Source of the DNA: a virus
Direction: 5' to 3' (one strand)
Virus genome (UHGV): UHGV-1726252
Length of the DNA stretch: 21,215 bases
Shown piece by piece: positions 664 through 20,514 of this stretch; the first letter of the stretch is position 1, and every line of letters begins with the position of its first letter. Position numbers and translations under genes: made by a program. A model generated the notes under the pieces. The model was not told where the DNA came from. It saw only the letters and a list, made by a program, of their open reading frames with translations, and did not search any database.

Positions 664-3027
664 TTATTTGAATTTACGAATCAACAACTGAGTGATCCGC
701 ACCGTCCTGGCAATGTTTCTCGTTGCGTAAACTCCGCCAATAATCCCACCGCCGCAGAACTTCCCCTTCGTCCAGTCTCCCGTATAGTTCAGGACAGGGG
801 TGTCGATAGTCTCCCACCCGTCGTAGACCTTAACGGTCTGAGTTGTAGGCGAGGTTTTTTCGCAGCGGATGAGGAACTTTCTTGCCCTATCGGTGGGACT
901 ATAAACATCGTCTATCCCGGCCTGGATCTGAGGATAGGGAGCGGAACCCTGGTATGGATAGCGCAGCTGTAGCAGGTTAAATGTTTTCGACGTGGCATAC
1001 AAAAGCAGGCAATTATCCTCCTGATAATTATCTGCAGCTCCCGAGTTTCGGTTGAGGGACTTCCCGCCAAAGAAAAGAAAACCCGTATCCGTGTCGAAGA
1101 AGCCCTCAACCAGGATTTCAACTTTGTCACCTACCTGTCCAATATCAGCGCAGTTTGTGCCGTCAAACATCTCAGGATTCATGAACGCCACGCGGTTATT
1201 TGTGGCATCCGCCTCGAAGCGGAAATCGAGAGGCCCGGTTTTCTCCAGCGCATTCACCTGAATATAATTTGGCGCGCCGTAGTTGTTCACGTAGCCAAAG
1301 GTGTCCCTGGCCTTCCAGAACGGATTGAACTCAAACCAGCCGCCCCAGAATGCCCCGAGAACTGTCGCCGATGGCGCGATCACCTGGATACGGTTAAGCC
1401 CGTATTTCAACTTGGTAAGATAGAATGGACGGTCTGTCGCGTTGATGGCTGCTTCGTTCTCTCCGGTGTCCGGAAGCTCTTTATCGTAATAGGCGGAAGA
1501 GTTACCGAGTGAAAAGACCCTCACGCGCGGCAGCTGGTCGGCTGCATATGTAGATCCAATATTGCTGTTGCCAAAATTGCGGTATATCAGGGAATCCTGA
1601 TTACCCTCGCTCCACACGAAGAAGTCAAAGATAACCTCGCTCGCCACATAGTCTGCGGCCTGGATGTACCAGATCCGCGGGAACCGCGAGTATTTATATC
1701 CCTCCGACCCCGTATCAGGAACCCAGCTGGAATTGTAGTCCTTCGAATATCGCATCCGGCTGTCCATCCAGCAGATACGCTCAATATCAGTACCGTAGCA
1801 GCGAAGAATGTCAGGCATAAACGACTGAGCGACAAAGGACGCTTTCATCGCATGGCCAACGTCCCCCCAGTGCAGGCCGTCAGGCTGGAGTTCATACTGG
1901 TTGGAGTAATCGCTGTTTTTGGACATCCATGTTTTTTGCATGAAGTCCTGATCGATAATGGACACCCCCAGCACCTCCGCCATGTATTTTTTCGCGGCAT
2001 CGATCTGGGCTGCAGCTTCTTCATTGTCACGCCCGGAAGTACCAGAGTTCCAGCCGTTGTAGGAGCGCCAGTTTGCATCGCAGGTCGTTAGTACGGGTGT
2101 GGCGCCGGCTGCGATAACCTTCTTCATGACCTCGATTGTTTGCGCGATATGCTCGGTGATTTTATTTCCTGCGTCTGTAATATCGTTCAGCCCGAAGCTG
2201 ATGATCACGATATCCGGGTTAGAAGGAATATAGGGGTTTTGCAGGACGATTTTATCAAAGTAATAATTTACCCAGCCGTTCTGCATTTGCTGGCCGGAAT
2301 ACCCGGCGTTATAAACGCTAATGTTGTTGTTACGATGGTACTGCCGAAGGATTGTCTGCAGTCTGGCACACCATGCATTGGGCGCTTCTGCGTTATGGTC
2401 ACTGTTGGCCAGAGGTGCAGTGGCCCACGGGAAGCCAGTTACAGGCGTGGTGGGGTTTGCCGTCCACCCCGTGGAGCCATTACCATCACCGGTCGAATCG
2501 GCTATGCTGGTAATAATAACCGTCTCTCCGGCATGCATTTTTGCTGCCCAGTAATCCAGGGTTTTAATATGTCCCTGAAATAATGGTGCCGCAGCACTGA
2601 GAATTAACTGCCGAAGAGAGGCATCGCCTACGGAGACAAAATGGGAAGAGTCAGTTGTATCCCACGAAGTTTTTGTTGTCCCGGCTGTTTTATAAGGTGG
2701 TTTGGTACCAGCAGACAGCTTATAGAATTCACCGTCATAACGAATCAGCTCATTGTATTCAGAGACAGTAATTATGCCGTCTTCATAATCTCCAATTACG
2801 TCATAGCCCGCATTTTCAATAAAGGTGCGAAATCGCGTTTCCTGATCAGCTATCTGATTATTGAAGTCATATTCCATTCCACTCCACGATTTACGTATCC
2901 GACCCAGCCTGTCGGTCCATGTTTTGTTGGTAATTCCATTTACCGCCTGATCCAGGTTCTGAGCGTTATCACGTAAATCGCGTGGGTCAGTTGAACCCGG
3001 CGGGTTAAGAGTGTTGTATGGTGCCAT
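664..3027 (-). CDS. Tailspike / side tail fibre protein with a central SGNH (GDSL-like) esterase domain, a probable receptor-modifying (deacetylase-type) enzyme
   Basis: 787 aa from the ATG at 3027, which has GGAG 10 nt upstream. All four SGNH blocks are present in order: SIADSTGDG (Ser block), YNAGYSGQ (Gly block), ISFGLNDI (GxND), DGLHWGDVGH (DxxH). The N-terminal ~130 aa resembles conserved fibre attachment domains. The track ORF extends 15 codons upstream across a terminator and is not taken as real. Confidence 0.8.
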   Translation of the reverse strand: MAPYNTLNPPGSTDPRDLRDNAQNLDQAVNGITNKTWTDRLGRIRKSWSGMEYDFNNQIADQETRFRTFIENAGYDVIGDYEDGIITVSEYNELIRYDGEFYKLSAGTKPPYKTAGTTKTSWDTTDSSHFVSVGDASLRQLILSAAAPLFQGHIKTLDYWAAKMHAGETVIITSIADSTGDGNGSTGWTANPTTPVTGFPWATAPLANSDHNAEAPNAWCARLQTILRQYHRNNNISVYNAGYSGQQMQNGWVNYYFDKIVLQNPYIPSNPDIVIISFGLNDITDAGNKITEHIAQTIEVMKKVIAAGATPVLTTCDANWRSYNGWNSGTSGRDNEEAAAQIDAAKKYMAEVLGVSIIDQDFMQKTWMSKNSDYSNQYELQPDGLHWGDVGHAMKASFVAQSFMPDILRCYGTDIERICWMDSRMRYSKDYNSSWVPDTGSEGYKYSRFPRIWYIQAADYVASEVIFDFFVWSEGNQDSLIYRNFGNSNIGSTYAADQLPRVRVFSLGNSSAYYDKELPDTGENEAAINATDRPFYLTKLKYGLNRIQVIAPSATVLGAFWGGWFEFNPFWKARDTFGYVNNYGAPNYIQVNALEKTGPLDFRFEADATNNRVAFMNPEMFDGTNCADIGQVGDKVEILVEGFFDTDTGFLFFGGKSLNRNSGAADNYQEDNCLLLYATSKTFNLLQLRYPYQGSAPYPQIQAGIDDVYSPTDRARKFLIRCEKTSPTTQTVKVYDGWETIDTPVLNYTGDWTKGKFCGGGIIGGVYATRNIARTVRITQLLIRKFK

Positions 3028-3043
3028 TGTATTTCTCCAGCAT

Positions 3044-3066
3044 AAAAAAACCCGCCGGAGCGGGTT
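3044..3066 (-). terminator. Intrinsic terminator between the J-like gene and the tailspike gene
   Basis: Minus strand ACCCGC-TCCG-GCGGGT followed by TTTTTTT, ending about 15 nt before the tailspike SD. Confidence 0.75.
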
Positions 3067-3084
3067 ATGCAATTAAGGGTGTTT

Positions 3085-6000
3085 TCAGGAGACATCGCCG
3101 GGGTAGCTGGCGTCATCGTACTTATATTTATCGGGATGGTACTGAATGGCTGAAATACTGCTGGTCCCATCACCTCCGGGAGAAATCTCGCCAACCAGCG
3201 CGTCATACCCGACACGGGATGACGAACAGAACAGCAGGCGAGGCGGCTCAATGTACGGACTGTCCATCGCCCATTCTTCCGGTGCCAGCGCGGCGCTGTA
3301 TGGAATACGCAGGGTGTAATCATCGATGCGCGTCGGAACCTGCAGCGGCGACGCCCGGCCGTCCTGGTGGCGGATCACCACCCGCGGATTTGGAAAACTC
3401 CAGTCCGGCGGTTCGCTGACTGTCAGGGTGATCGCAGTGCTGTCCCATTCCATGTCAGTTATCAGGCAGCTCAGCGTCTGGTTGCCGGGAATGTCGTCAG
3501 TGAGGATGATCCGGTCCATAAACTGGTAGCACAGCGCATCCATTTCAGTGCTGGTCGTATGCTGCAGGCGCTGCAGCTGGTAGCCGCGCAAACGGCGCAT
3601 GCCAATGCGGTACGCCCGGTCCTGATCCACAACCCCCTCCAGTTTGTAATCTTCCACCTTCACTGGCGTAGAGTTTCCGGGCTGACGGCACTGTACGGTT
3701 TCTTCTGCCCAGGTCGTGCCGTTGATATACGTCACATCCACGCCGTCATAATCGTCCTGGCTCGGAGCCTTGAAGGCCGTCTGCAGCTCTTCAGTCGTCT
3801 CCTGGGGAGTGATCATCCCGGTCCAGTTTTTCACTCCTTCTCTCCCGGCGGAAACCAGTCCATCTGACAGAAGGAAGTATCCCATCCCTGCGCCGGTAAT
3901 GATTTTCAATACCTCGAGCGCAGACTTGCTGTCCCCGGTGGCCCAGTCGAACGTTTCCCCGCGGGGGGTCCACCAGGTCTGTTCGAGCGCGTCAATCGCT
4001 GCGCGGTCAATCTGTTCAGGGCGGAAACCCAGAGATTCCAGGACATGGTACAGCGCCCCGCTGATGCTGCGTGAAGGGTGTCCGTTATATAGCCGTGTGG
4101 GAATGACGTTAACGCGGCGATCGGACTGGGCCGCCAGTCGGTTACCGGTTCGTACCGTCAGCGCAAGAGTGGTCACGCCTGCATAGCTCCCCGGGCGTTT
4201 GCTCAACCGCGAGCGCATCGCCTGCCAGTAAAGGTTGTTCACCGTCCTGGCACCGCCAATTTTCGTCGTACGCCGCACGCGGACCTCATACTGTGCGGCC
4301 GGCAGCCCGCTGATGCGCCGGGTATAACCGTGGCCATCTGCGGTTTTGTTGGTGAAGTTATACACCACCTGCGACCAGGCTCCCGAAGTGGCTGCATTAC
4401 GGTACTGAACCAGCACCCGCACAGTATGCGACTGCGGATCCCCGTTCTTTTTGTACTGGATGTGGCCGTTGGGGAAAATGAAGTTATTTTCGATGGCCGT
4501 GGTTGTTTCTCCGTCCGGGCAGGCAAGGAAGGGGCCGAGCCAGGCATAATCATCATTCACGCCGGTGACCTGGGCATCGAGCAGCGTACGCTCGGTGAAC
4601 CCTGGCCATGCCGGATCCACGGTGACGACATCATTACCACTGGTGTCCTGGGTGACGACCACCCGCTCAACCGTGATGGTCTGATCATCAATATCGGTAA
4701 TGCGGAACTGGCCGTCGGCGTAGCCGATACCGATCCGCTGAACGCCATCAGGGATACCGGTGAAAGGCTTGCCTGTGGCATTGTCATACGCCAGCGTGAT
4801 ATTTGCCTCAACCGCCGCGGTACCGCCCGTCGAGGCCACCCCGGTAACATCTACCGTAGCGCTGCCGAATACGGAGACCGGAAGAGCGCTGTGACTGATG
4901 GCCCCCCCGGCAAACGGGCTGCTTTCCTCGGCAATCTGCAGCCGGCCACCAGTATCGCGCGCGATCAGGCCGGAACCGGTGAGCTGGTTTGATATGGTAT
5001 TAACCAGTCCGGACATCGTGACGTAACTGGTAATGAGTGAGATAGCATACGTCGTGCCTTTCCAGCCGATCGTGAACGTAACCGGCGTTGCCGTGAAATC
5101 GTACGTGGTGGGCGCGGCGCTGGCGGTAATGCTCGCTGTCGAACCACCCACCCCGGGCACCGCCGGAACGCCTGCTGCGTAACTGGCGATATACAGATCA
5201 TAAGCCGACTCATTAAACGTCACCGAGACAGGCATGCCTGCAGCTGGCCGTAGCTCAGCAACATCACCATAAATCACGCTGTACCCGCCGGCATTGGCAA
5301 CCCGGTAGGAGTTTGGTGCTACTACCGTGATTACTGTGCCAACAACCCAGGCCGCCGGGATCTCCGTTTCACCGTCGCTGGCCGTGGCCGCAATCAGGGA
5401 AAGAGTGTTACCGCTCACCAGAATGGCATCAGAGATGATACTGACCGTCTGCGGGCCGGTTGAGCCGAGGTCGAGGCCTGCGGTACCCGAAGTGGTATTC
5501 CCCACCTCGCCGCTGTTGAACCAGTTCTCGGAACGACTATCGGCCGCAACGCTGGCACCCGGTGGATAGATGGTGGCGCTGACATCACTGCCGAACGCGG
5601 ATGCTGGCGTGGAGCCAATGCGTATCGCCGACGCGGGCAGTGCCATGTCGCCCACCCCCACGCATAAAAACATGCTGGTCACGTATTTTTTGGGATCGGC
5701 GGAATCGAAGCGCGAAACCGGCTGGACGACGTAATCCGGCCACACCTTATAGCGACCAAATATCTCCCGGATGGGATCGCCCAGTTTTGCCATATTGGCC
5801 TTTGCAGGGTTGAGCTCGAGTTGATCCCCGTTGCCGGGCTGGCTGGCGCCGCCGGTCTGCATGGTGCTCATCATGTAGATGGAGTAGGCGGCAGAGGCGA
5901 CGGCTATTGCCACTGCCGTCCAGACCAGCCAGGCTGGCGCCGCCGGGCCAAACGGAACGGGATACAGGCGTACATCATCATCCGGTGCGATAATCTGCGC

Positions 6001-6177
6001 ACTCCACTCATTCGGAGGGATAGACACACCATTCAACTCCAGCGCCACCGGGTGGGTCATGTCAGGCTGCCAGCCCTGCACGTTTCTGGTGAACCAGTCG
6101 GCAATGGTGGTGCTGGCGTGCTGATGCGACTCCAGCGGTTCGCCTTCGATTCGGGAGGGATAAATTCGGATCGTCAC
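3085..6177 (-). CDS. Central tail fibre / host-specificity protein, lambda gpJ-like core with an extra N-terminal module and no lambda-type C-terminal receptor-binding domain
   Basis: 1030-aa ORF starting at a GTG that overlaps the K-like stop (GTGA), with GGAG 8 nt upstream. Residues ~110-700 show gpJ-like stretches (for example VRVLVQYRN...YEVRVRRTT against lambda RLLVQIQRN...FNIRMRRMT, from memory). The first ~75 aa end in YPVPFG and are followed by a ~25-residue hydrophobic segment. Confidence 0.8.
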   Translation of the reverse strand: MTIRIYPSRIEGEPLESHQHASTTIADWFTRNVQGWQPDMTHPVALELNGVSIPPNEWSAQIIAPDDDVRLYPVPFGPAAPAWLVWTAVAIAVASAAYSIYMMSTMQTGGASQPGNGDQLELNPAKANMAKLGDPIREIFGRYKVWPDYVVQPVSRFDSADPKKYVTSMFLCVGVGDMALPASAIRIGSTPASAFGSDVSATIYPPGASVAADSRSENWFNSGEVGNTTSGTAGLDLGSTGPQTVSIISDAILVSGNTLSLIAATASDGETEIPAAWVVGTVITVVAPNSYRVANAGGYSVIYGDVAELRPAAGMPVSVTFNESAYDLYIASYAAGVPAVPGVGGSTASITASAAPTTYDFTATPVTFTIGWKGTTYAISLITSYVTMSGLVNTISNQLTGSGLIARDTGGRLQIAEESSPFAGGAISHSALPVSVFGSATVDVTGVASTGGTAAVEANITLAYDNATGKPFTGIPDGVQRIGIGYADGQFRITDIDDQTITVERVVVTQDTSGNDVVTVDPAWPGFTERTLLDAQVTGVNDDYAWLGPFLACPDGETTTAIENNFIFPNGHIQYKKNGDPQSHTVRVLVQYRNAATSGAWSQVVYNFTNKTADGHGYTRRISGLPAAQYEVRVRRTTKIGGARTVNNLYWQAMRSRLSKRPGSYAGVTTLALTVRTGNRLAAQSDRRVNVIPTRLYNGHPSRSISGALYHVLESLGFRPEQIDRAAIDALEQTWWTPRGETFDWATGDSKSALEVLKIITGAGMGYFLLSDGLVSAGREGVKNWTGMITPQETTEELQTAFKAPSQDDYDGVDVTYINGTTWAEETVQCRQPGNSTPVKVEDYKLEGVVDQDRAYRIGMRRLRGYQLQRLQHTTSTEMDALCYQFMDRIILTDDIPGNQTLSCLITDMEWDSTAITLTVSEPPDWSFPNPRVVIRHQDGRASPLQVPTRIDDYTLRIPYSAALAPEEWAMDSPYIEPPRLLFCSSSRVGYDALVGEISPGGDGTSSISAIQYHPDKYKYDDASYPGDVS

Positions 6178-6728
6178 TTATAGAACTCCACTTTGACGTA
6201 CTGCCGGAGAAATCGGGCCAGAGGTAATATGGTCACGTTGCGTTTAGGGTTAGCCTCGAGGACGTGCAAAGCGCCATTAACGGTGACGGCGATTCCCAGA
6301 TGCGTTACTAGTCCCGCGGTATAACACGCCGCTACCGCACCCTCTTCTGGCTCGCATTTTTCGATACTGCTGAGGAAGCCGTTGCAGGTGTCATTCATCT
6401 GAGAGCCTTCGTTAATAACACCCTCAAAAACAGGCCAGTCCGGCAGACCTAGATCGCGCCTCACCTCATGAATTACGCCATAACAGTCGAGAACCGGGTA
6501 ATCGCGGCCGCCCATCTGCCATGTAACCGAGAGGTATTTTTCAGGATTAAACCGACCTTCTCTGGAGGATGAATTCATTTTTGAGGCGTTTGATAAGCTC
6601 ACCATTCGGCTCCTTAATCTCTTTTCTTCCTCTGCTCGTGTGATGAGATCAGGCTGGTCGTGACATTCATGGTGGATATTACGAGGATTCTCTGACGGCA
6701 GCGGATTTCCGGTATTGTATTTAGCCAT
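6174..6728 (-). CDS. Tail tip assembly protein, gpK-like NlpC/P60 peptidase lacking the JAB/MPN domain
   Basis: 184 aa with an NlpC/P60 Cys motif (VLDCYGV, compare lambda K TDCYTLF as recalled) and downstream His residues (VTHLGIAV, ALHVLE). No ExxGxLxG or HxHx7SxxD JAB motifs in the N-terminal 75 aa. ATG start; stop overlaps the J-like start. Confidence 0.7.
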   Translation of the reverse strand: MAKYNTGNPLPSENPRNIHHECHDQPDLITRAEEEKRLRSRMVSLSNASKMNSSSREGRFNPEKYLSVTWQMGGRDYPVLDCYGVIHEVRRDLGLPDWPVFEGVINEGSQMNDTCNGFLSSIEKCEPEEGAVAACYTAGLVTHLGIAVTVNGALHVLEANPKRNVTILPLARFLRQYVKVEFYK

Positions 6729-6737
6729 AATGATTTC

Positions 6738-7226
6738 CTACTGCAGGTAACGAAGTCCCGGGAAGTCCGGCAGCGTGTAACGGTAGCGCGGCCATGACGT
6801 ATCGAGAATGTTCATGTAGCCGGCGGTGATCTGCACCTCCGTTGCTGTCCAGGAACCCTCTTTAATCGCGAGGGTGAACGGGGGAGCTGCGGGTGCTGAC
6901 AGATCGGTGGAGACGTACCGTCGAAAGGTCAGTGATGCATTGCTCAAATTGTCGAGCGCATTACGGATCGCCGTTGATACAATGCCGTCGATATTGCTGA
7001 TGGCGAATTTTAGATCCTGCGTGCCGTCGGCGTTGCGCGCTGGCAGCGCCACATCAATGGCAGAACCGGTGAATGTCGCCTCGCTGCCCGTTTCCAGGGT
7101 AACAGTTATGTCATCCCATCCGCGGGTCAGCCAGTAATCCTGACCACCAACGGTGATTTGTAGCGTGTCCAGGATGACCTCATCACCACCGGATGCGTAA
7201 AGCCGGTTGAGAACCGCACTGGTCAT
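6738..7226 (-). CDS. Tail tip protein, gpL-like N-terminal domain, Cys-free
   Basis: 162 aa from the ATG at 7226 (AAGGAG upstream; ATGA overlap with the M-like stop). VILDTLQITVGGQDYWL resembles lambda gpL VVLWEIDLTEVGGERYFF as recalled. The track start at 7238 is a GTG with no usable SD spacing. Confidence 0.6.
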   Translation of the reverse strand: MTSAVLNRLYASGGDEVILDTLQITVGGQDYWLTRGWDDITVTLETGSEATFTGSAIDVALPARNADGTQDLKFAISNIDGIVSTAIRNALDNLSNASLTFRRYVSTDLSAPAAPPFTLAIKEGSWTATEVQITAGYMNILDTSWPRYRYTLPDFPGLRYLQ

Positions 7227-7684
7227 GCTTCGGGCCACTCCTTATTCAGCGCCAGATCGATAATGTCAGAACCAGCCACCATCTCGGGAAATAATCCCCA
7301 ACCTGGCGGCAATAGTGGCCGTTCCCACAATTCCAGCGTTGCGGTAAATTGCCAGAATTTACCGCTTGCCAAAATTGGGCCCTGATAAATATCTACAAAA
7401 CGACACTTATAAGGTTGAATCCCCAAAGGAGTTTTAAGGCGCATATAAAACCAGGCAACACCATCTGTAAGAGCGTCCCGAAACCATGCCTCAAATAACT
7501 GGGCTTCATTATCTCTCTTAAATGACCATTTCACGCTCGCTTGCGTAGGAACCGAGCTATAAATTCGGCGTTGCCTGGAACGGCCTGAGGTTAATTTGGT
7601 ACGAAGAAAAGGACTTATGGGCTCGAGCCCAAAACCATCTTTTAATGGGATCGGTAATTCTTTAGGGTAGAAAATATCAGCCAT
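7223..7684 (-). CDS. Distal tail protein, gpM-like
   Basis: 153 aa immediately after the tape measure gene, with a start/stop overlap (TAATG). Weak pattern similarity to lambda gpM. Base composition is clearly more AT-rich than neighbouring genes. Confidence 0.5.
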   Translation of the reverse strand: MADIFYPKELPIPLKDGFGLEPISPFLRTKLTSGRSRQRRIYSSVPTQASVKWSFKRDNEAQLFEAWFRDALTDGVAWFYMRLKTPLGIQPYKCRFVDIYQGPILASGKFWQFTATLELWERPLLPPGWGLFPEMVAGSDIIDLALNKEWPEA

Positions 7685-10377
7685 TATCTAGCCTTCCTTT
7701 TTGCGTACATAACATTAACCGCGTCATGAACTTTCCCCTGCCCTTTCGACAAGCTATTTACGACCATGTCAAAGCCCTGGGTCGCCCCGCGTTTCACAGC
7801 CGCTTCCATCATCGCAATTGTACGTGCATCAGGATCACCATTAACCTGAATGGTTGGTGAATAATTGAATTGACCCTGCATTGCGTTATTTTCACGTTGT
7901 TTTTGAATATCGGTGAGAGTCGCATCCAATTTTGCTGAGGTATTAGACTTAACGACTCGCTCTCCTTGTTGAAGCAACCAAGTCCCCGTCGCTGGAACCT
8001 TATCAAGACCATCGTGAGCCATACCCATCAGAGAGGCGGCTGATATGGCCGCAACCATTGGCGATGTTACTGCCGCAGCCGCAGCCATCGCAGCGGGTGC
8101 GAGCGCTGGCCCCACGATAGGGATCGCCGCAGTAGAAGCGTAGGCATTTAATTGGGCCATTAATGCACTGGCTGTGGCATTGCTGGTCATTGCGGCTGCG
8201 GCTGAAGCTTGGGTGCCTTTACCAACCATTAGCTGAACAGCCTGGTAAACGAGCCATTGAGCAGCCATTTGCGACAGGGTCTGAATAACCGTCTCGCCCA
8301 TGCTGGAGAACATATTCCCGAATGCATCACCGACAGATTTCGCTTGGGTGATAATTCCGCTAAAAGCATTAGCCATTGAATTAGTTGTTTGATTAAGTAA
8401 CGAAGATGCTGCGTTAGCAGCCGTCAGGTTATAGTTAGAAGCTTCATCGGCGAAATTCGCCATGGATGTTAAGGCACCAGCCTGCCAGTTCTGCCTGATC
8501 GCATCCTGCTGACCGTAGTAATTCCTGAGCGCGGTCAACTCATTCTGATAGCCTTTATCGCTTTCATTGCCGCCCGAATTTTTCCAGCCCTGAAGGAGTT
8601 GGGCCTCTTCAAGACGGCGCTGTGCCTGACGACTGCTCATGCCAGCACTATCGGCCAGCGCGCGGGTTTTCTCACCCATCTGGGTCACATATTTCTGAGA
8701 TGAGTCCTGCAGGCGGTTGAGGCGTTCCTGAATGACGATCTGATCTCCCAATCCGGCATTGATCTCCGCCTGGGCGAGCACCTTGTCTTTGCTGGCGAGC
8801 ACTGATTTTTCATCATCAGTGAGTACGCGATTTTTCGCAGCTTGCTCGAGTACAGTGAATTTGGCCTGCTCTTTCCATAACTGCTGCCGCTGCAGGCTGA
8901 TCTTGTCGTTGATTCCAGTATGCTGCCGTAAAACCTCCAGTTGAGTTTGCAATTCCAGAGTCTGAGCACTGGTACTGTCGGTAAGCTTCGTTCCACCCGG
9001 CGTCCTGACTTTCGTCGGTTTCTTCAGCGAGTCCTCATATTCCTTTCTCGCCGCGGCCAGATTGATGTTGTAATCAGCCTGAAGGATCCTACCTTCTTTC
9101 AACGCTTTGTTCAGTTCGTTCTGGCGATCGGTGTACTTCTCCAGAGCCGTCTGCGATTTGCTGTAATTCGCCTGGGCCTGTTGCGCGTACTTGAGGCGAT
9201 CGGCTTCCAGTCCTGCCTCACGGGTAGCGCTTTCCTGGGCGAGTTGAGAATTGCGTGCCTGTTGCTGCGCCATATCCAGCGCCTGGCGGGTTGTCTCACG
9301 GTCATTCCAGAAGCGGGCGCGCGCTTCATCGTTGACATAACGATCGCCCTTTCGCAAATCCCAGATTTCATCCGCCCGCCTGAAGGCCGCCTCTGCCTTG
9401 CTCAGCATTTCCTGAGAGGTATCCGGCCTGCCGATATCCAGCGCCGCATCCCACATGGATTTAAAGGCATTTTTCAGAGAGTCCGCAGCGGATTCAATCG
9501 AGCCCATGTTGTCGCGGATACTGGCAGTCTGCTTGTTGAACCCGGCGGTTGCTGCTTCGTTTGCCGCCTGTAGAGCCCCTGCTTCATTTCCTGAGCGCTG
9601 CAGAGCGGCAACATATTCAACCTGTTCAGCCGTGACATTGTGAAACTGCTGCGCCATCGCCAGCAGCCCTGACGCCGGATCGTTGACCATGCGTCCAAAT
9701 GCTTCGGCCACCTTATCGACCGGCAGACCGGATGCATCTGTGAATTTCGCAACCGAGATCGCAAGCCCTTCAAAGTTAGCACCCGCGCGAACGCCAGCGT
9801 TAACTAGTGCCGTCAATGCCTGACTGGTCTGATTGAAAGTTAATCCCGCTTTTTCGCCGGCTGCTGCAATAGTTTGCATACGGACTGCAGTGAGCCCGGC
9901 AGTGTTCCCGGTGAGCACCAACGTTTTATTGAATTCGGATAATGTACTTGATCCCTGATAGTACGAGTACATCAGCGCCGCGGTGCCAGCGGTTAACGCA
10001 CCAACGCCCAGCATTACAGGTGAGATTGAACTGGCAAGACCAACCAGCATTGGTCGAATCCCGCCAAACATGTCTTTTACCTGCCCGCCCTGCTGGAGCA
10101 GAATCAGCCAGGGGTTCTGCCCCCCTGCTAACTGTGTGGCAACATCCGTAAACTGTGCAGGCAACATGCGCATAGCATTGCTGTACTGCCCTACGGACAA
10201 GCCCGCTCTTTTTGCTGCTACTTCATGGCGGGTAAAGGACTTTTGGACCTGAAGGGCAGCGTCATTTGCGGCCTGACCAGTGCCTTTGAGCTGCTTATTT
10301 ACACGATTAACCTGCTCCGTGAATTTAGTCGAATCAACATCCAGATTTACTATCAGGTCACCCACTGACTGGGCCAT
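7684..10377 (-). CDS. H: Tail tape measure protein (gpH-like)
   Basis: 897 aa, Ala/Gln-rich with long predicted helical stretches and a hydrophobic Ala/Gly-rich segment near the C-terminus. Sits after G/T and before the tail tip genes; its start overlaps the T ORF end by 20 nt. Confidence 0.9.
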   Translation of the reverse strand: MAQSVGDLIVNLDVDSTKFTEQVNRVNKQLKGTGQAANDAALQVQKSFTRHEVAAKRAGLSVGQYSNAMRMLPAQFTDVATQLAGGQNPWLILLQQGGQVKDMFGGIRPMLVGLASSISPVMLGVGALTAGTAALMYSYYQGSSTLSEFNKTLVLTGNTAGLTAVRMQTIAAAGEKAGLTFNQTSQALTALVNAGVRAGANFEGLAISVAKFTDASGLPVDKVAEAFGRMVNDPASGLLAMAQQFHNVTAEQVEYVAALQRSGNEAGALQAANEAATAGFNKQTASIRDNMGSIESAADSLKNAFKSMWDAALDIGRPDTSQEMLSKAEAAFRRADEIWDLRKGDRYVNDEARARFWNDRETTRQALDMAQQQARNSQLAQESATREAGLEADRLKYAQQAQANYSKSQTALEKYTDRQNELNKALKEGRILQADYNINLAAARKEYEDSLKKPTKVRTPGGTKLTDSTSAQTLELQTQLEVLRQHTGINDKISLQRQQLWKEQAKFTVLEQAAKNRVLTDDEKSVLASKDKVLAQAEINAGLGDQIVIQERLNRLQDSSQKYVTQMGEKTRALADSAGMSSRQAQRRLEEAQLLQGWKNSGGNESDKGYQNELTALRNYYGQQDAIRQNWQAGALTSMANFADEASNYNLTAANAASSLLNQTTNSMANAFSGIITQAKSVGDAFGNMFSSMGETVIQTLSQMAAQWLVYQAVQLMVGKGTQASAAAAMTSNATASALMAQLNAYASTAAIPIVGPALAPAAMAAAAAVTSPMVAAISAASLMGMAHDGLDKVPATGTWLLQQGERVVKSNTSAKLDATLTDIQKQRENNAMQGQFNYSPTIQVNGDPDARTIAMMEAAVKRGATQGFDMVVNSLSKGQGKVHDAVNVMYAKRKAR

Positions 10378-12842: not shown

Positions 12843-13118
12843 TTACTCAATCCAGATCTGTGGCTTACCGTTGAACAACTGTTTGCGGGTAACGGTGTAG
12901 TCCTGGCCCTTCCAGTGAATGACATCGCCTTTGCGTGGCGACACTGCCGGGGAGAACACCACCAGTGACAGGCCATCCCCCACCAGCGGCCCCATTTCTG
13001 CGACAAACTGGCTTTCTACAGCATCAAAAATGACCCCGTTGATCGTGACTTTATCCGCCATCAGATTGACGGTGGCCGCGTCCATACGGGCCACCATCGC
13101 GTCGAAGGGATTAGCCAT
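12843..13118 (-). CDS. Head-tail joining protein, gpFII-like
   Basis: 91 aa from the internal ATG; MANPFDAMVARMDAAT resembles lambda FII MADFDNLFDAAIARADET as recalled. Position between head genes and Z. Start overlaps the end of the preceding gene. Confidence 0.65.
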   Translation of the reverse strand: MANPFDAMVARMDAATVNLMADKVTINGVIFDAVESQFVAEMGPLVGDGLSLVVFSPAVSPRKGDVIHWKGQDYTVTRKQLFNGKPQIWIE

Positions 13119-13434
13119 TAAGCTTAACCAGTACGGCGGCGGCGTTCGCACCGGCAGCCTGCCAGGCTTTCCCTGCGGGGGTCGCGCCGGTGGCCTCCAG
13201 TTGCACTTTCCCGCTTTTGAAGTAAACGGTCTTGCCCTGGGCGATATCATCCGCCGCCAGCTTCGGCAACTGGACTACGCCACTGGTGAGGCCCGTACCA
13301 GTTTCGCCGACGGCAATATCAGCGATAGCGATCGCCAGAACATCCCCAACGGCAACCGGCGTGCCACTGGCAATCACCGCCGACCCCGAGTTGGTCAAAT
13401 CGATAGTGTGACCATCCTGTACGAAATTCTTCAT
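13111..13434 (-). CDS. Small Gly/Ala-rich head protein, putative capsid decoration/cement protein (paralog A)
   Basis: 107 aa from the ATG at 13434, with GGAG 7 nt upstream. First gene after the capsid gene terminator. Clear paralog of the ORF at 20020-20361. Confidence 0.5.
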   Translation of the reverse strand: MKNFVQDGHTIDLTNSGSAVIASGTPVAVGDVLAIAIADIAVGETGTGLTSGVVQLPKLAADDIAQGKTVYFKSGKVQLEATGATPAGKAWQAAGANAAAVLVKLNG

Positions 13435-13442
13435 GAGCTCTC

Positions 13443-13466
13443 CGTATGGCCCCTGCCGGGGCCATG
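13443..13466 (-). other. Stable 8-bp hairpin in the 5' leader of the decoration-like gene
   Basis: Minus strand ATGGCCCC-GGCA-GGGGCCAT, a perfect inverted repeat with no following U-tract, lying between the capsid terminator and the SD of paralog A. Confidence 0.5.
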
Positions 13467-13475
13467 TTGCAGATA

Positions 13476-13498
13476 TAAAAAAAGCCCTTACGGGCCGG
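13476..13498 (-). terminator. Intrinsic terminator immediately after the protease/capsid gene
   Basis: Minus strand GGCCC-GTAA-GGGCT (GNRA-type loop) followed by TTTTTTTATAT, about 20 nt after the stop at 13515-13517. Confidence 0.7.
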
Positions 13499-13514
13499 TT
13501 CAATGTCGGGGTGA

Positions 13515-15461
13515 TTACTTACCGGATGATTTCGCCAGGCCGCGATAATCCAGCGGCGCCACACCAGCATCGATGCGGACTTTCGTCGCAACACCATCAG
13601 TGGTGAAACCTTCCTGCTGGTCGATGTACGGGGCATCAATGCCATTGAGGTACGCCACTTCGATGGTATCGGTGCCCTGTGCGGCAGCCAGATACCAGGC
13701 CGCCGGGTCGGCGTCATCCAGACGCGCTTCTGCGATCACTTCGGCAAAGTTCTGCAGCGGGTTCACCACGCCGGCATTGATATCAGCCCCTTTCACGCTT
13801 GCTGACTTAATGGTCTGGCTGGCTAATGTTTCCAGACCCACCGGAACCAGCATGTAGGCCGGACGAATGTTCAGGGCGCGCTCGCCCTCTTTCTGCTTGC
13901 GCATGTTCTGGCGGGCCTTATCCAGGCTGTCAACGCTGATGGCGCCAGCTGAAAGGTTGGCATGGTCAGCATGGAAGAGCGCCTTGCCATCTGAAAGTTT
14001 CCCGTTACCGGTCAGCACGGCGTAGACCAGGTCACCGATAGTGGCTTTTGCAGCGCGGCCCATCTTCATCGGAACGTCAGTCAGCTGGTTCAGGTCATCG
14101 TTGATAATGGCCTGGCGGGTGATGGAGAAGATCTCACCGTAAGTAGCCAGCGCGATGGTTTCACCCTTATCCTGCGTGGTGATGTACTTATACTCCGCGC
14201 CCTCTCGCACCTGACGCAGGGACGGGAAGCCCCCCATGCCGACGCGATGCGCCGTTTTGAAGTCAGAGAGCTGGCCTTTTTTGGTCCAGAGTTCAAAGGT
14301 CTCTGCCGCTTCATCCCAGCCCTGCAACAGCGCTTTGTTGGCGACATCGAGCAGGATATTGCCAAAATCGGAGGTGCTGTGCGTCAGCGCAAAACCGACC
14401 ATCTGCATCGGGTTGTAACTGGAGACCCCGATGCCGCGCTCGGTCAAGGACATGCGGGCGTATTCGCGCAGCGTCATACCGTTATAGACGTTGTCACGCT
14501 CAACATTTTCATAACCGGCACGCGCCATCAGCGCCTGGCGGATCCCGTCGCCAACAAAGTTACCGTTCCCGGCATACACATGGGCCTGCCCCTGCGTAGT
14601 GGTGTTGGACGGCGTGGCATTTTTACCGAGCTCTGCCAGAAGAACATCTTTCGCCTGGCTGACCGAGCACTCTGGATCGGCAATACATTTAGCCTGCAGC
14701 TCCTGATGCTTTCCGCCGAACATGGCGAAGAGATCCTGAATACCGTTCACGCGTGCCTTTTGCTCCGCAATAACCTGCGCACGGATATCAGTTTCGCTGG
14801 CACCTGCCGCCGGAGCCGGCTGGGTGACAGTTGGCTGCTGTGTTTCGCGCGTAGCGGTATTGCGCGGCGGGGTGACCATGTTGCGAATGCTGTTTGGCAT
14901 CTTTTCAAATTCCTCAATACGTTTCGAATGGATGCAGGCCATTGCCTGCAAGGATGGTGTGACCTGGTCAGCGAAGCCCAGCTCCAGACATTCAGTGCTG
15001 GAGAGCCAGGTCTCTTCCTCCAGCATTGCCGCAATTTCTTCGGTGCTTTTTCCCGTCTTCTGCGCGTATGCCGGGATCAACACCGACTCCATTTTGTCGA
15101 GCAGGTCGGCGTAGTCGCGCATGTCATCAGCATCACCACCCGCAAAACCCCACGGCTTGTGGATCATCATCATGGTGTTTTCCGGCATGATGACCGGGTT
15201 TCCTACCATGGCGATGACTGATGCCATTGAGGCAGCCAGACCGTCGATATAAACGGTGATCGCCGCGCCGTGGAATTTCAGGGCATTAAAAATGGCGATA
15301 CCGTCAAAGACATCGCCACCAGGGGAGTTGATATGCAGTTTGATGTGGGTGACATCGCCCAGCGCCTTAAGGTTTGCGACGAACTGCTTCGCCGTTACCC
15401 CCCAGTAGCCGATCTCGTCGTAGATGTAGATTTCGGCTTCGTTTTCCGAACTGGCCTGCAT
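13515..15461 (-). CDS. Fused prohead protease (ClpP/S49-like) and major capsid protein (HK97-fold type)
   Basis: Single ORF. N-terminal ~200 aa carry a ClpP/S49-like serine protease signature (EIYIYDEIGYWG, HINSPGGDVFDG, GLAASMASVI, MIHKPW). A Pro/Ala/Gln-rich linker follows, then a ~330-aa capsid-like C-terminal region. Start uncertain: ATG at 15461 (11 nt after the portal stop, chosen here) or ATG at 15545 (overlapping the portal 3' end). The track extension to 15806 is rejected. Confidence 0.85.
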   Translation of the reverse strand: MQASSENEAEIYIYDEIGYWGVTAKQFVANLKALGDVTHIKLHINSPGGDVFDGIAIFNALKFHGAAITVYIDGLAASMASVIAMVGNPVIMPENTMMMIHKPWGFAGGDADDMRDYADLLDKMESVLIPAYAQKTGKSTEEIAAMLEEETWLSSTECLELGFADQVTPSLQAMACIHSKRIEEFEKMPNSIRNMVTPPRNTATRETQQPTVTQPAPAAGASETDIRAQVIAEQKARVNGIQDLFAMFGGKHQELQAKCIADPECSVSQAKDVLLAELGKNATPSNTTTQGQAHVYAGNGNFVGDGIRQALMARAGYENVERDNVYNGMTLREYARMSLTERGIGVSSYNPMQMVGFALTHSTSDFGNILLDVANKALLQGWDEAAETFELWTKKGQLSDFKTAHRVGMGGFPSLRQVREGAEYKYITTQDKGETIALATYGEIFSITRQAIINDDLNQLTDVPMKMGRAAKATIGDLVYAVLTGNGKLSDGKALFHADHANLSAGAISVDSLDKARQNMRKQKEGERALNIRPAYMLVPVGLETLASQTIKSASVKGADINAGVVNPLQNFAEVIAEARLDDADPAAWYLAAAQGTDTIEVAYLNGIDAPYIDQQEGFTTDGVATKVRIDAGVAPLDYRGLAKSSGK

Positions 15462-15471
15462 ACGGAACCAG

Positions 15472-16974
15472 CTATTTTTTGCCTGGGCTTTCGGGCGGTT
15501 CTTTACCCGGTTTTGCTTCCTGGACACGAGTGTCTCCTTTGTCATTTGCCGGGTCGGTATCAAACACCAGCCCCTGTTTACGGTTCTCGTCAACCTCCGC
15601 CTTACGGCGGCGCTTAACATCATCAGGATTTGCGCCGCGGGCGCGCACCCATTCACTCTCTGTCGCAGCACCGCCACGCAGCAGAATTTTCCAGGCGTTC
15701 GCCTCTTTGACCGGGTCAATCCAGGGCATAACGGGCCCGGAGAACACGGCGCTAAAGAGCGTGGCTTTATCGACATTTTTCGGGACCGTGATCTCGCCTG
15801 AAGCAATCGCCATCCTGAGCCAGGCCCGGTACATAGGTCGTGTGATCGCCGCGATGAATGCGTCCTGAAGAATGAAATAGCCTTCGGTTGACTCCACCAG
15901 CTCCTGGCGCTGCGCGCTGTATGTTCCGTCGTAGTTACGGGCGATACTTGAAAAGCTACCGCGCGAACCAGCGGCTACAGCACGTAGCTGGCTATTACGG
16001 AAAGTTTCGAGGTTGGGATTTGGTCGGTCTGACTTGATCATGCCGATGTCTTCACCCGGGCGGAGATCGTCAAACAGCATGCCGGGCTCGATGTTTAGCT
16101 CCCTTTGACCGCTGCTGCCTTCGTCATAAGTCTGGCCATCACCTTTTTTAATGAACATGCCCAGTGCCGCAGCAATGCGGGCAGCGGTCAGTTCGGCGTC
16201 CTCGTACTCCTTCAGCGCCGAAAGACGCATCAGCACCCCGGCAAGCAGTGAGTTACCCCGGATTTGATGCAGGCGGCGCATGAACTTCAGGTGAAGCATA
16301 TTCTCCGCCTGAATATCCTTGGTATCTCCCTGGCGCATGCCTTCCGCCGGAAGGTTTTTGTAGACCATGTATCGGGTCGGGCGGCCCCAGTCATTCAGGT
16401 AAATGCCCTGGCATAACTTCTGACCCGGCTCTGTCCGCTCCATCGGCACAAAATCCGGTTCCAGAGCCTCAATCCAGAAAGGAATGTCTGCCACCGGCGA
16501 CAGACCGTTCCCGGTGCCACTGACCAGCTGCGCGAACACCTCGCCGTCACGTAACCAGGTCCGGCACATCAGGCGCTCAAGCACTGGTCGGGTAAACTGC
16601 CCGGTAACATCGGGAGAAACGGACCACTCCGCCCATTTGGCGCGGATCTGTGTAGCAAGGTCAGTAGCGATGCCCCCGTTACTCATCAGGGGCTGCGGCT
16701 CCACGATGATGCCTTTTGCCCCCACAATGCGCTCTTCGAGTTTATCAAGGAGGCCGATCACCAGATCGTGGTTACAGTCAAGCCACCGGGCTTGTTCGCG
16801 CAGCGATCGCCCGCCGAATTGCGTCAACTGATTCGCGGAGCGGTTTTCGCGTTTTGCCCGGTGCGTCCGGGTAGGAATGACAGCCTCATATGCCTGGATC
16901 ATCAGGCGCGACTTCAGGCGCTCCGCTTTCCAGCCCGGGGAAAACATGCCTATCAGATTATCCAGGGCGCTCAT
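15472..16974 (-). CDS. Portal protein (lambda gpB family)
   Basis: 500 aa, located between W and the protease/capsid gene. ATGA overlap with the W stop. Basic/acidic C-terminal tail. Confidence 0.9.
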   Translation of the reverse strand: MSALDNLIGMFSPGWKAERLKSRLMIQAYEAVIPTRTHRAKRENRSANQLTQFGGRSLREQARWLDCNHDLVIGLLDKLEERIVGAKGIIVEPQPLMSNGGIATDLATQIRAKWAEWSVSPDVTGQFTRPVLERLMCRTWLRDGEVFAQLVSGTGNGLSPVADIPFWIEALEPDFVPMERTEPGQKLCQGIYLNDWGRPTRYMVYKNLPAEGMRQGDTKDIQAENMLHLKFMRRLHQIRGNSLLAGVLMRLSALKEYEDAELTAARIAAALGMFIKKGDGQTYDEGSSGQRELNIEPGMLFDDLRPGEDIGMIKSDRPNPNLETFRNSQLRAVAAGSRGSFSSIARNYDGTYSAQRQELVESTEGYFILQDAFIAAITRPMYRAWLRMAIASGEITVPKNVDKATLFSAVFSGPVMPWIDPVKEANAWKILLRGGAATESEWVRARGANPDDVKRRRKAEVDENRKQGLVFDTDPANDKGDTRVQEAKPGKEPPESPGKK

Positions 16975-20019: not shown

Positions 20020-20361
20020 TTAGAAGCCGAGGCGAACGCGACCCTCAGGGTCGTTTGCATTGGTGGTAATCCACGCAGTGCCTGCAACGGCGTTGTCATC
20101 AGTGCCATCCTTCGAGCTACTGGTCAACTTGCCATCTTTCGTCAGCCAGAGTCGGACCCCGCGCTGCCAGGTCTCAGCTGCAACCTTCGGCAAGACGAAT
20201 ACTCCGGTCATCATCAGAACACCATCACCGCTGGCGGCGATATCGTGCTGAGCGATACCGATGATCGCACCAACAATCACCGGTTGACCTGACACCACAT
20301 CTTTTGTGGTCCCGTTATGCCAGTCCATTGTATTGCCGTCCTGGTAGTAGTTTTTAGCCAT
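20020..20361 (-). CDS. Small Gly/Ala-rich protein, paralog B of the putative decoration protein, located outside the head module
   Basis: 113 aa from the ATG at 20361 (AGAGG upstream). Aligns along its length with the ORF at 13111-13434 at roughly 35-40 percent identity (MAKNYYQDGNTMD against MKNFVQDGHTID; shared G.PV.VG, DIA..G.G, GV..LPK.AA). Confidence 0.5.
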   Translation of the reverse strand: MAKNYYQDGNTMDWHNGTTKDVVSGQPVIVGAIIGIAQHDIAASGDGVLMMTGVFVLPKVAAETWQRGVRLWLTKDGKLTSSSKDGTDDNAVAGTAWITTNANDPEGRVRLGF

Positions 20362-20514
20362 ATTGGGCCTCTGGTTATGCCTGATAAGCAGGTTAAAAGA
20401 ATAGGTATTACGTTCGTTGCGCCGGGTGCGCTGAGGGGTAATTGACATGAGCATGTGTCTTCACATGATGATGTTAACTATCAGCCCCGCGAGAGCGAGG
20501 CTGCAAATAGCATG

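Follow-up and report, generated by a model that had tools for sequence, protein, structure and literature searches.

A known counterpart of the gene analysed here is gpK of phage lambda, which is described as required for tail assembly (PMC12617516) and which was undetected in lambda virions by mass spectrometry (PMC10721106). In RcGTA, the 150-aa protein g14 degrades peptidoglycan, a deletion mutant makes tailless heads, and the protein is a possible occupant of the tail lumen (PMC7296036). Regarding the domain composition of these tail-tip proteins, Iyer, Burroughs and Aravind (2006, Genome Biol 7:R60, Table 1 row 5; PMC1779556) described a JAB-less TAPK together with a TAPI-TAPJ fusion, and noted that an I-J fusion in a prophage is nearly always accompanied by an NlpC domain without JAB. 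Nevertheless, the correlation between both features is not absolute, because JAB-less K also adjoins separate I (PMC1779556). Therefore, the idea that phages with a separate I gene always keep JAB in K does not hold. The same authors proposed that JAB releases a ubiquitin-like domain (PMC1779556). The first-pass annotation of the locus described below read it as a gpK homolog that had lost JAB and, together with an apparent I-J fusion, as a coherent remodelling of the tail tip.

The locus lies in a stretch of 21,215 nt of a virus genome (UHGV-1726252), the whole of which is called the window here. The genes of interest are all on the minus strand, as are all the window features for which we give coordinates, and together they make up the late operon of a prophage. 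The genes for the head and the tail tube are of the lambda/Gifsy kind, among them a gpA-type terminase, a portal of the lambda family, a ClpP-capsid fusion, Z, U, G and T, a V-type tube protein that carries a Big_2 domain, and a tape measure in which TMP_2 and Tape_meas_lam_C domains were recognised. The ClpP-type protease and major capsid protein domains are joined in an ORF of 763 aa (13515-15806). Phage_cement_2 (head decoration) matches two ORFs (13111-13503 and 20020-20454), one of them adjoining the capsid gene and the other lying upstream of the small terminase.

Past the tape measure the order is not lambda M-L-K-I-J, but a phrog_384 protein, a DUF1833 protein, the peptidase, TipJ and the tail fibre. 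The phrog_384 tip protein (153 aa, 7223..7684, assigned by PHROG match) is encoded directly after the tape measure gene. The DUF1833 minor tail protein (6738..7226, as called to 7238; Pfam DUF1833 E 5e-43; phrog_396) likely has its true start at the ATG at 7226, which overlaps the upstream stop as ATGA; its homologues are 160-162 aa long. Then come the 184-aa ORF (6174..6728), the TipJ-family central tail protein of 1030 aa (3085..6177; NF040662 E 3e-127; FNIII-A_GpJ) and a tail fibre with a GDSL esterase domain (664..3027, true start MAPYNT at 3027). Immediately upstream of the fibre start, a GC-rich stretch with a T-run (cggcgggttttttt-atgc-c/tggag, 3028-3057) has the look of an intrinsic terminator separating the TipJ and fibre genes, and the same element is conserved in nearly all loci (L004, L007, L008, L012-L018, L021, L024). 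Just downstream of the fibre gene there is a 135-aa Peptidase_S24 (UmuD/LexA-like) ORF (182-589), which may be prophage cargo.

The same tip cassette was found in many Klebsiella, E. coli, Citrobacter and Enterobacter prophages, where it is combined with several different tube and tape-measure types, and we consider it a mobile module. We read the window as a lambda-like tail tube onto which an old D3-type tip module, separate from the lambda one, was grafted. With megablast, the tip region had no match in the phage collection. One IMG/VR viral contig (IMGVR_UViG_3300029450_000003, here L022) is 98.4% identical to window positions 2520-9954 (7.4 kb), and its tail fibre starts with MAPCNT where that of the window starts with MAPYNT.

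The 184-aa ORF, which consists of an N-terminal add-on and an NlpC/P60 tail-tip peptidase, runs from an ATG start to a stop codon at 6174-6176, and its end overlaps by 4 nt (GTGA) the GTG start of the downstream 1030-aa gene. The exact protein is WP_440939698.1, labelled 'hypothetical protein [Escherichia coli]' and present on 21 contigs at NCBI, and other 184-aa variants occur in E. coli and Citrobacter, those listed being on 1 to 21 contigs each. Therefore, we consider that the fused 184-aa form is not a sequencing error.

The conserved NlpC/P60 domain comprises the 126 residues 59-184 (6177..6554), as delimited by the AlphaFold2 model and by homologue lengths. The LDCYGV motif and the downstream His that the first-pass annotation had noticed are indeed there, the former at residues 80-85 (6474-6491). 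Cys82 (codon 6483-6485) and His143 (codon 6300-6302) are invariant in 46 close homologues and are the sole invariant residues in 65 representatives at 23-59% identity; therefore, the enzyme is very probably active. In the AlphaFold2 model, which was built on 46 sequences, residues 59-184 are confidently predicted to adopt a papain-like alpha+beta fold, with Cys82 opening helix 82-92 and His143 within strand 140-150. Among the candidates for a third catalytic residue, His155 is not conserved in the 46 close homologues, and Glu158 and Asn160 are near-invariant only among these close homologues (n=46). The family-conserved K64, Y65, W70, G73, G74 and R75 lie inside the peptidase domain.

The 184-aa protein has no match to Pfam PF00877 (NLPC_P60) above the gathering score, and the relatives of the peptidase reach E 0.01-0.04 with this model, under the cut-off. 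The NlpC/P60 assignment rests therefore on the fold and on PHROG 329 ('minor tail protein'), which matches the protein at profile positions 541-655. Pfam and NCBIfam assign no family to the peptidase itself, and a profile search against PDB sequences gave for it only a weak C92-type match (E 0.08). Public records widely call the peptidase family 'nitrite transporter' and the TipJ protein 'kinase' (P0002, P0004, P0023, H1-H13 and others), labels that appear to be propagated errors.

Regarding JAB, the Pfam Prok-JAB profile (114 positions) matched neither the 184-aa protein (or its first 58 residues) nor the other sizeable ORFs of the window, and the motif HxH(6-12)SxxD was found in none of the six frames of the window. 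Thus, the N-terminus is free of JAB, as the first-pass annotation had stated, although the region outside the domain is 58 residues and not 75; neither is there a separate JAB-domain gene among the sizeable ORFs of the window. Furthermore, 43 of the 46 close homologues are 125-129 aa long, their first residue corresponding to residue 59 of the window protein. Searching 1.84 billion cluster representatives with a profile yielded 273 relatives; the full-length matches listed were nearly all of 120-148 aa, with the domain starting a few residues from the N-terminus in all but a handful, and none of the matches listed had a JAB-sized N-terminus. The single long match (266 aa) carries a DnaG-type zinc ribbon instead of JAB, and the BFVD structure matches of the peptidase model are small stand-alone proteins too. 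We conclude that the D3-type peptidase family is, as judged from these relatives, single-domain and that JAB is not part of the module's design. The window ORF departs from the family norm, since it has 184 aa and its domain starts at residue 59, versus 120-148 aa and a start at residues 1-10; residues 59-184 alone match the 126-aa norm of the D3-type family. The gene also lies between the DUF1833 and TipJ genes with a 4-nt overlap onto the TipJ start, as in the D3-type family, and the 273 single-domain representatives give no sign of a lineage-specific loss of JAB. Our preferred reading, which we hold to be probable, is that the peptidase is a member of the D3-type family, that is, a stand-alone Cys-His enzyme of about 126 aa (NlpC/P60, papain-like), to which an insert restricted to Enterobacteriaceae was added.

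The I-J fusion that had been suspected from the window was borne out as far as an I-like N-terminus of TipJ is concerned. In the gpI-like part of TipJ (residues 1 to about 170, 5668-6177; fold prediction, BLASTP and hhalign), residues 1-75 are predicted as beta-beta-alpha-beta-beta..beta with pLDDT 62-87, the model being of low confidence outside these residues. This predicted beta-grasp-like fold is followed by a hydrophobic helix at residues 87-101, and the first domain closes with a near-invariant Gly77. Residues 116-166 align with residues 169-219 of lambda gpI (BLASTP E 8e-4, hhalign E 0.011), marginal values obtained with a single gpI sequence; that part of gpI is the plug in the lumen of the lambda tip (PMC10721106). 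With the N-terminal model, Foldseek found ubiquitin-like proteins at a best E of about 0.1, which is not significant, and did not recover lambda gpI; many BFVD models named 'tip attachment protein J' match this N-terminus. Pfam Lambda_tail_I has no match in TipJ. The J-like core starts much later, with TipJ 573-638 and 807-1017 aligning to lambda J 122-185 and 393-595. We accept the I-like N-terminus of TipJ, its predicted ubiquitin-like fold being no more than moderately supported. One BFVD entry, A0A6J7WL04 (1483 aa, uncultured phage, 'Tip attachment protein J'), has a model that matches both the peptidase model (rank 8) and the I-like N-terminus of TipJ (rank 2), which suggests that the peptidase, the I-like part and J can join into one polypeptide.

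The first 58 residues of the ORF (6555..6728) correspond to a lineage-specific stretch of 174 nt. Loci of the 126-aa type (L004, L016, L017) have no insert; in a blastn of the window against one of them, the Leclercia locus L016, the alignment breaks exactly at 6552/6731. The closest loci of the 126-aa type read TAGGAAATCACC-ATG-TTCAATCC, and the window reads TAGGAAATCATT-ATG-(174 nt)-TTTAATCC. Given this break and the match of the flanks, the 174 nt were therefore inserted right after the ancestral start codon. We regard residues 1-58 as a recent insertion and not as a decayed domain. The insert was seen only in some Enterobacteriaceae prophages, and in the AlphaFold2 model these residues are mostly disordered (pLDDT below 50 except for one helix). 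A longer donor gene was not found, as the 59-aa add-on matched only 60-aa ORFs among 5.8 billion proteins; PHROGs and Pfam gave no match for it either. In D3 (L002), two additional small genes (orf23, orf24) and an annotated terminator occupy exactly the same DUF1833/peptidase junction (5367-5984 of that genome), which looks like a recurrent insertion site.

The insert exists in two forms. We classified 18 insert-bearing loci as fused or split; a scan of genome contigs gave two loci only, both of the 126-aa type, and a metagenome scan gave one locus. The fused form, with a 184-aa ORF, was found in 8 loci (the window, L022, L007, L020, L003, L024, L009 and L026). In the other 10 a 60-aa ORF (MAKYNTGNPL...ILQRRSV) overlaps a 142-aa peptidase by 56 nt. 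When 4 fused and 4 split loci were aligned there was one gapped column: the forms differ by a single T at 6619..6620, where the window has AAGA/GATT and the split form AAGATGATT. The insert is therefore of 174 nt in the fused form and of 175 nt in the split form, and the shorter insert puts codons 1-36 of the small ORF into the reading frame of the peptidase. The window also has an internal start site (6603..6616), composed of a Shine-Dalgarno TAAGGAG (6610-6616), a 4-nt spacer and the ATG of Met42 (6603-6605); the split-form 142-aa peptidase starts at the equivalent of Met42/43, behind a Shine-Dalgarno AAGGAG. The ancestral ribosome-binding site is kept before Met1 (TAGGAAATCA..ATG). Thus, the window can probably make a 143-aa peptidase from Met42 as well as, plausibly, a 184-aa fusion from Met1. 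Programmed +1 frameshifting in the split-form loci was considered too, and nothing was found in its favour. As to which form came first, the clean in-frame insert of 174 nt would argue for the fused one, and the stronger constraint of the small-ORF frame in the overlap (pN/pS 0.34 versus about 1, from few substitutions and non-independent pairs) would argue for the split one.

Residues 1-18 of the add-on, MAKYNTGNPLPSENPRNI (6675..6728), show a fibre-type N-terminal motif. A similar sequence opens the fibres whose genes follow TipJ, MAPYNTLNPPGSTDPRDL in the window and MTKYATKNPLGSTSPYDL in L007. With a PSSM built from 13 fibre N-termini, the add-on scored 30 bits, a value reached by none of 100,000 shuffles, and the next unrelated Met-started window scored 2.8 bits. 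Among 3,646 distinct Met-started windows drawn from the six frames of all loci, the versions of the add-on come next after the enterobacterial fibres and others close to the consensus; the D3 fibre, which is more divergent, scored 15.5 bits. A tblastn of the add-on against phages gave weak matches (E 5-10), all of them aligned from query residue 1, and the two that we inspected begin at codon 1 of a tail-fibre or pectate-lyase gene. The likeness to fibres ends after residue 18. Residues 1-18 thus resemble a copy or mimic of the tail-fibre N-terminal motif. It could even be a working docking peptide at the tip site that normally takes the fibre N-terminus, which we think rather improbable. If that were true, a cell-wall peptidase or a small fibre-loading regulator would be placed outside the tip, and one nucleotide of difference would switch between the arrangement with a 60-aa protein and that with a peptidase fusion.

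Selection on the add-on was estimated with pairwise Nei-Gojobori counts. In codons 1-25, pN/pS was 0.08 in the fused forms, 0.37 in the split forms and 0.22 overall, values that come from few substitutions and non-independent pairs; between the window and L003 these codons differ by 6 synonymous and 0 non-synonymous changes. In codons 26-36, with the same few substitutions and non-independent pairs, it was 0.07 in the split forms and 0.67 in the fused forms, and in the overlap the peptidase frame is at about 1, as given above. This suggests that selection acts on the fibre-like peptide in the fused and in the split form, and that the 16 residues leading the peptidase serve as nothing more than a leader.

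Three other explanations have to be weighed against a D3-type peptidase with an insert. The 184-aa ORF might be nothing but the accidental extension of a frameshifted, dead small gene, with only the 143-aa product from Met42 being functional and codons 1-41 meaningless. We lean against this, although it deserves to be kept in mind: the Shine-Dalgarno 4 nt before Met42 is perfect, the split-form loci use exactly the equivalent start for their peptidase, and the public annotation of L003 and L009 has a 142-aa protein despite an open frame that extends to 184 aa. Moreover, the N-terminus is disordered in the AlphaFold2 model and residues 26-36 are relaxed in the fused forms (0.67 versus 0.07 in the split ones, with the small and non-independent counts already mentioned). 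However, the ancestral ribosome-binding site is kept at the first ATG and no stop codon precedes the peptidase domain. Furthermore, codons 1-25 are conserved at the protein level among fused forms while their synonymous sites change (pN/pS 0.08, on the same few pairs), and the fused form is spread over E. coli and Citrobacter, with the listed variants on 1 to 21 contigs each.

That the gene descends from gpK and was stripped of JAB in a coordinated remodelling, in which gpI was fused to gpJ, seems unlikely to us. With a family that is wholly single-domain and an N-terminus that is a 174-nt insertion, a loss of JAB in this lineage is not supported; no JAB remnant is seen in those 58 aa, the M and L positions hold unrelated families (phrog_384 and DUF1833) and D3, a viable phage, has the same layout. 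Several facts would fit such a history, as the NlpC half maps to the PHROG region of gpK, the gene is in the K position and TipJ has an I-like N-terminus, the same co-occurrence that Iyer et al. saw. JAB-less K beside separate I counts on both sides: these authors suggested possible degenerate variants (PMC1779556), and its occurrence shows that the correlation is not absolute. What the first-pass annotation called a coherent remodelling is therefore a real layout, albeit one published in 2006. As for a very divergent JAB/MPN or other catalytic domain in the N-terminal region, its probability is close to nil. Beyond a His/Cys-rich patch (HHECH, residues 19-23) nothing speaks for it, whereas 58 residues are about half of the Prok-JAB profile, Pfam and PHROG give no match, the HxH..SxxD motif is missing, pLDDT is below 50 outside the one helix and the region is absent from nearly all family members. 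A divergent JAB was thus rejected on Pfam, model disorder and motif absence, and a D3-type enzyme with an added N-terminus is the reading that we follow below.

By analogy with lambda gpK and RcGTA g14, the small Cys-His peptidase would be needed to build the tail tip, and it may travel in the lumen of the tip until its release, when it would cut peptidoglycan. Another possibility is that it processes a tip protein such as TipJ, whose predicted ubiquitin-like N-terminus could be cut at the conserved Gly77; Iyer et al. speculated likewise on a papain-like enzyme as the processor of such a domain (PMC1779556). Since that N-terminus and its glycine persist without JAB, the idea of a release by JAB would not hold for the D3-type module. 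Processing of TipJ, if any, would have to be carried out by the papain-like enzyme or by a host protease, and would otherwise be absent; the papain-like peptidase is left as the only evident protease candidate among the tip genes. Regarding the add-on, some Enterobacteriaceae prophages took up 174-175 nt directly behind the start codon of the peptidase, and these brought a short ORF with fibre-like first 18 residues together with an internal Shine-Dalgarno and ATG. An insert of 175 nt would give a 60-aa protein and an overlapping 142-aa peptidase, and one of 174 nt the 184-aa ORF. Here one base decides whether a small protein stays separate or is fused to the peptidase, which makes a modest but testable example of tail genes gaining parts.

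Compared with lambda gpK, the window peptidase shares the gene position before I/J and an NlpC/P60 domain with DCY...H. The window peptidase and the NlpC/P60 half of gpK fall in the same region of phrog_329 (541-655 and 558-657, respectively), where D3 orf25 falls too, and this shared region is, at the level of sequence, the best link to gpK. Nevertheless, direct comparison with the single lambda gpK gave a BLASTP E of 3.2 and an hhalign E of 0.093, neither of them significant, with Cys and His in register. Calling the protein a gpK homolog is therefore supported only through phrog_329, as the counterpart of the C-terminal NlpC/P60 half, and direct similarity does not reach significance. Lambda gpK differs in its N-terminal JAB domain (Pfam Prok-JAB E 6e-5), its separate gpI, and gpM and gpL of other families. 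The RefSeq gpK (199 aa; L001) matches only positions 63-112 of the 114 of the Prok-JAB profile, and there is a gap of 148 nt between gene L and the annotated gpK start (4129-4276 of L001); this start may be annotated too far downstream.

RcGTA g14 and the peptidase of roseophage R4C are also JAB-less, stand-alone enzymes of about 150 aa encoded just before a large central tip protein, required for tail formation and proposed to be ejected to cut peptidoglycan (PMC7296036, PMC10276861). They are likened to ours by gene position and size; their neighbouring tip proteins belong to other families, and no alphaproteobacterial phages were among the tblastn matches of the window peptidase. The layout of Iyer et al. 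has in common with the window an NlpC/P60-only protein, an I-like J N-terminus, a beta-rich small protein upstream and its occurrence in prophages. It is a description of architecture only, with no mention of an N-terminal add-on, a 60-aa ORF or a fibre-like motif. Thus, the pairing of a JAB-less NlpC/P60 protein with an I-J fusion is already in the literature, is widespread among tail tips and is not a new remodelling; what is new here is the fibre-like add-on of 58 residues, in two forms that are one T apart.

Finally, orf25 of Pseudomonas phage D3 (135 aa, phrog_329) belongs to the same family, with a tblastn identity of 39% over residues 62-184. It has no N-terminal extension, unlike the window ORF. 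The cassette of D3 (orf21, orf22, orf25, orf26 and orf27) has the gene order of the window, namely DUF1833, peptidase, TipJ and fibre, and the N-termini of D3 orf26 and the window TipJ are homologous (E 2e-38).
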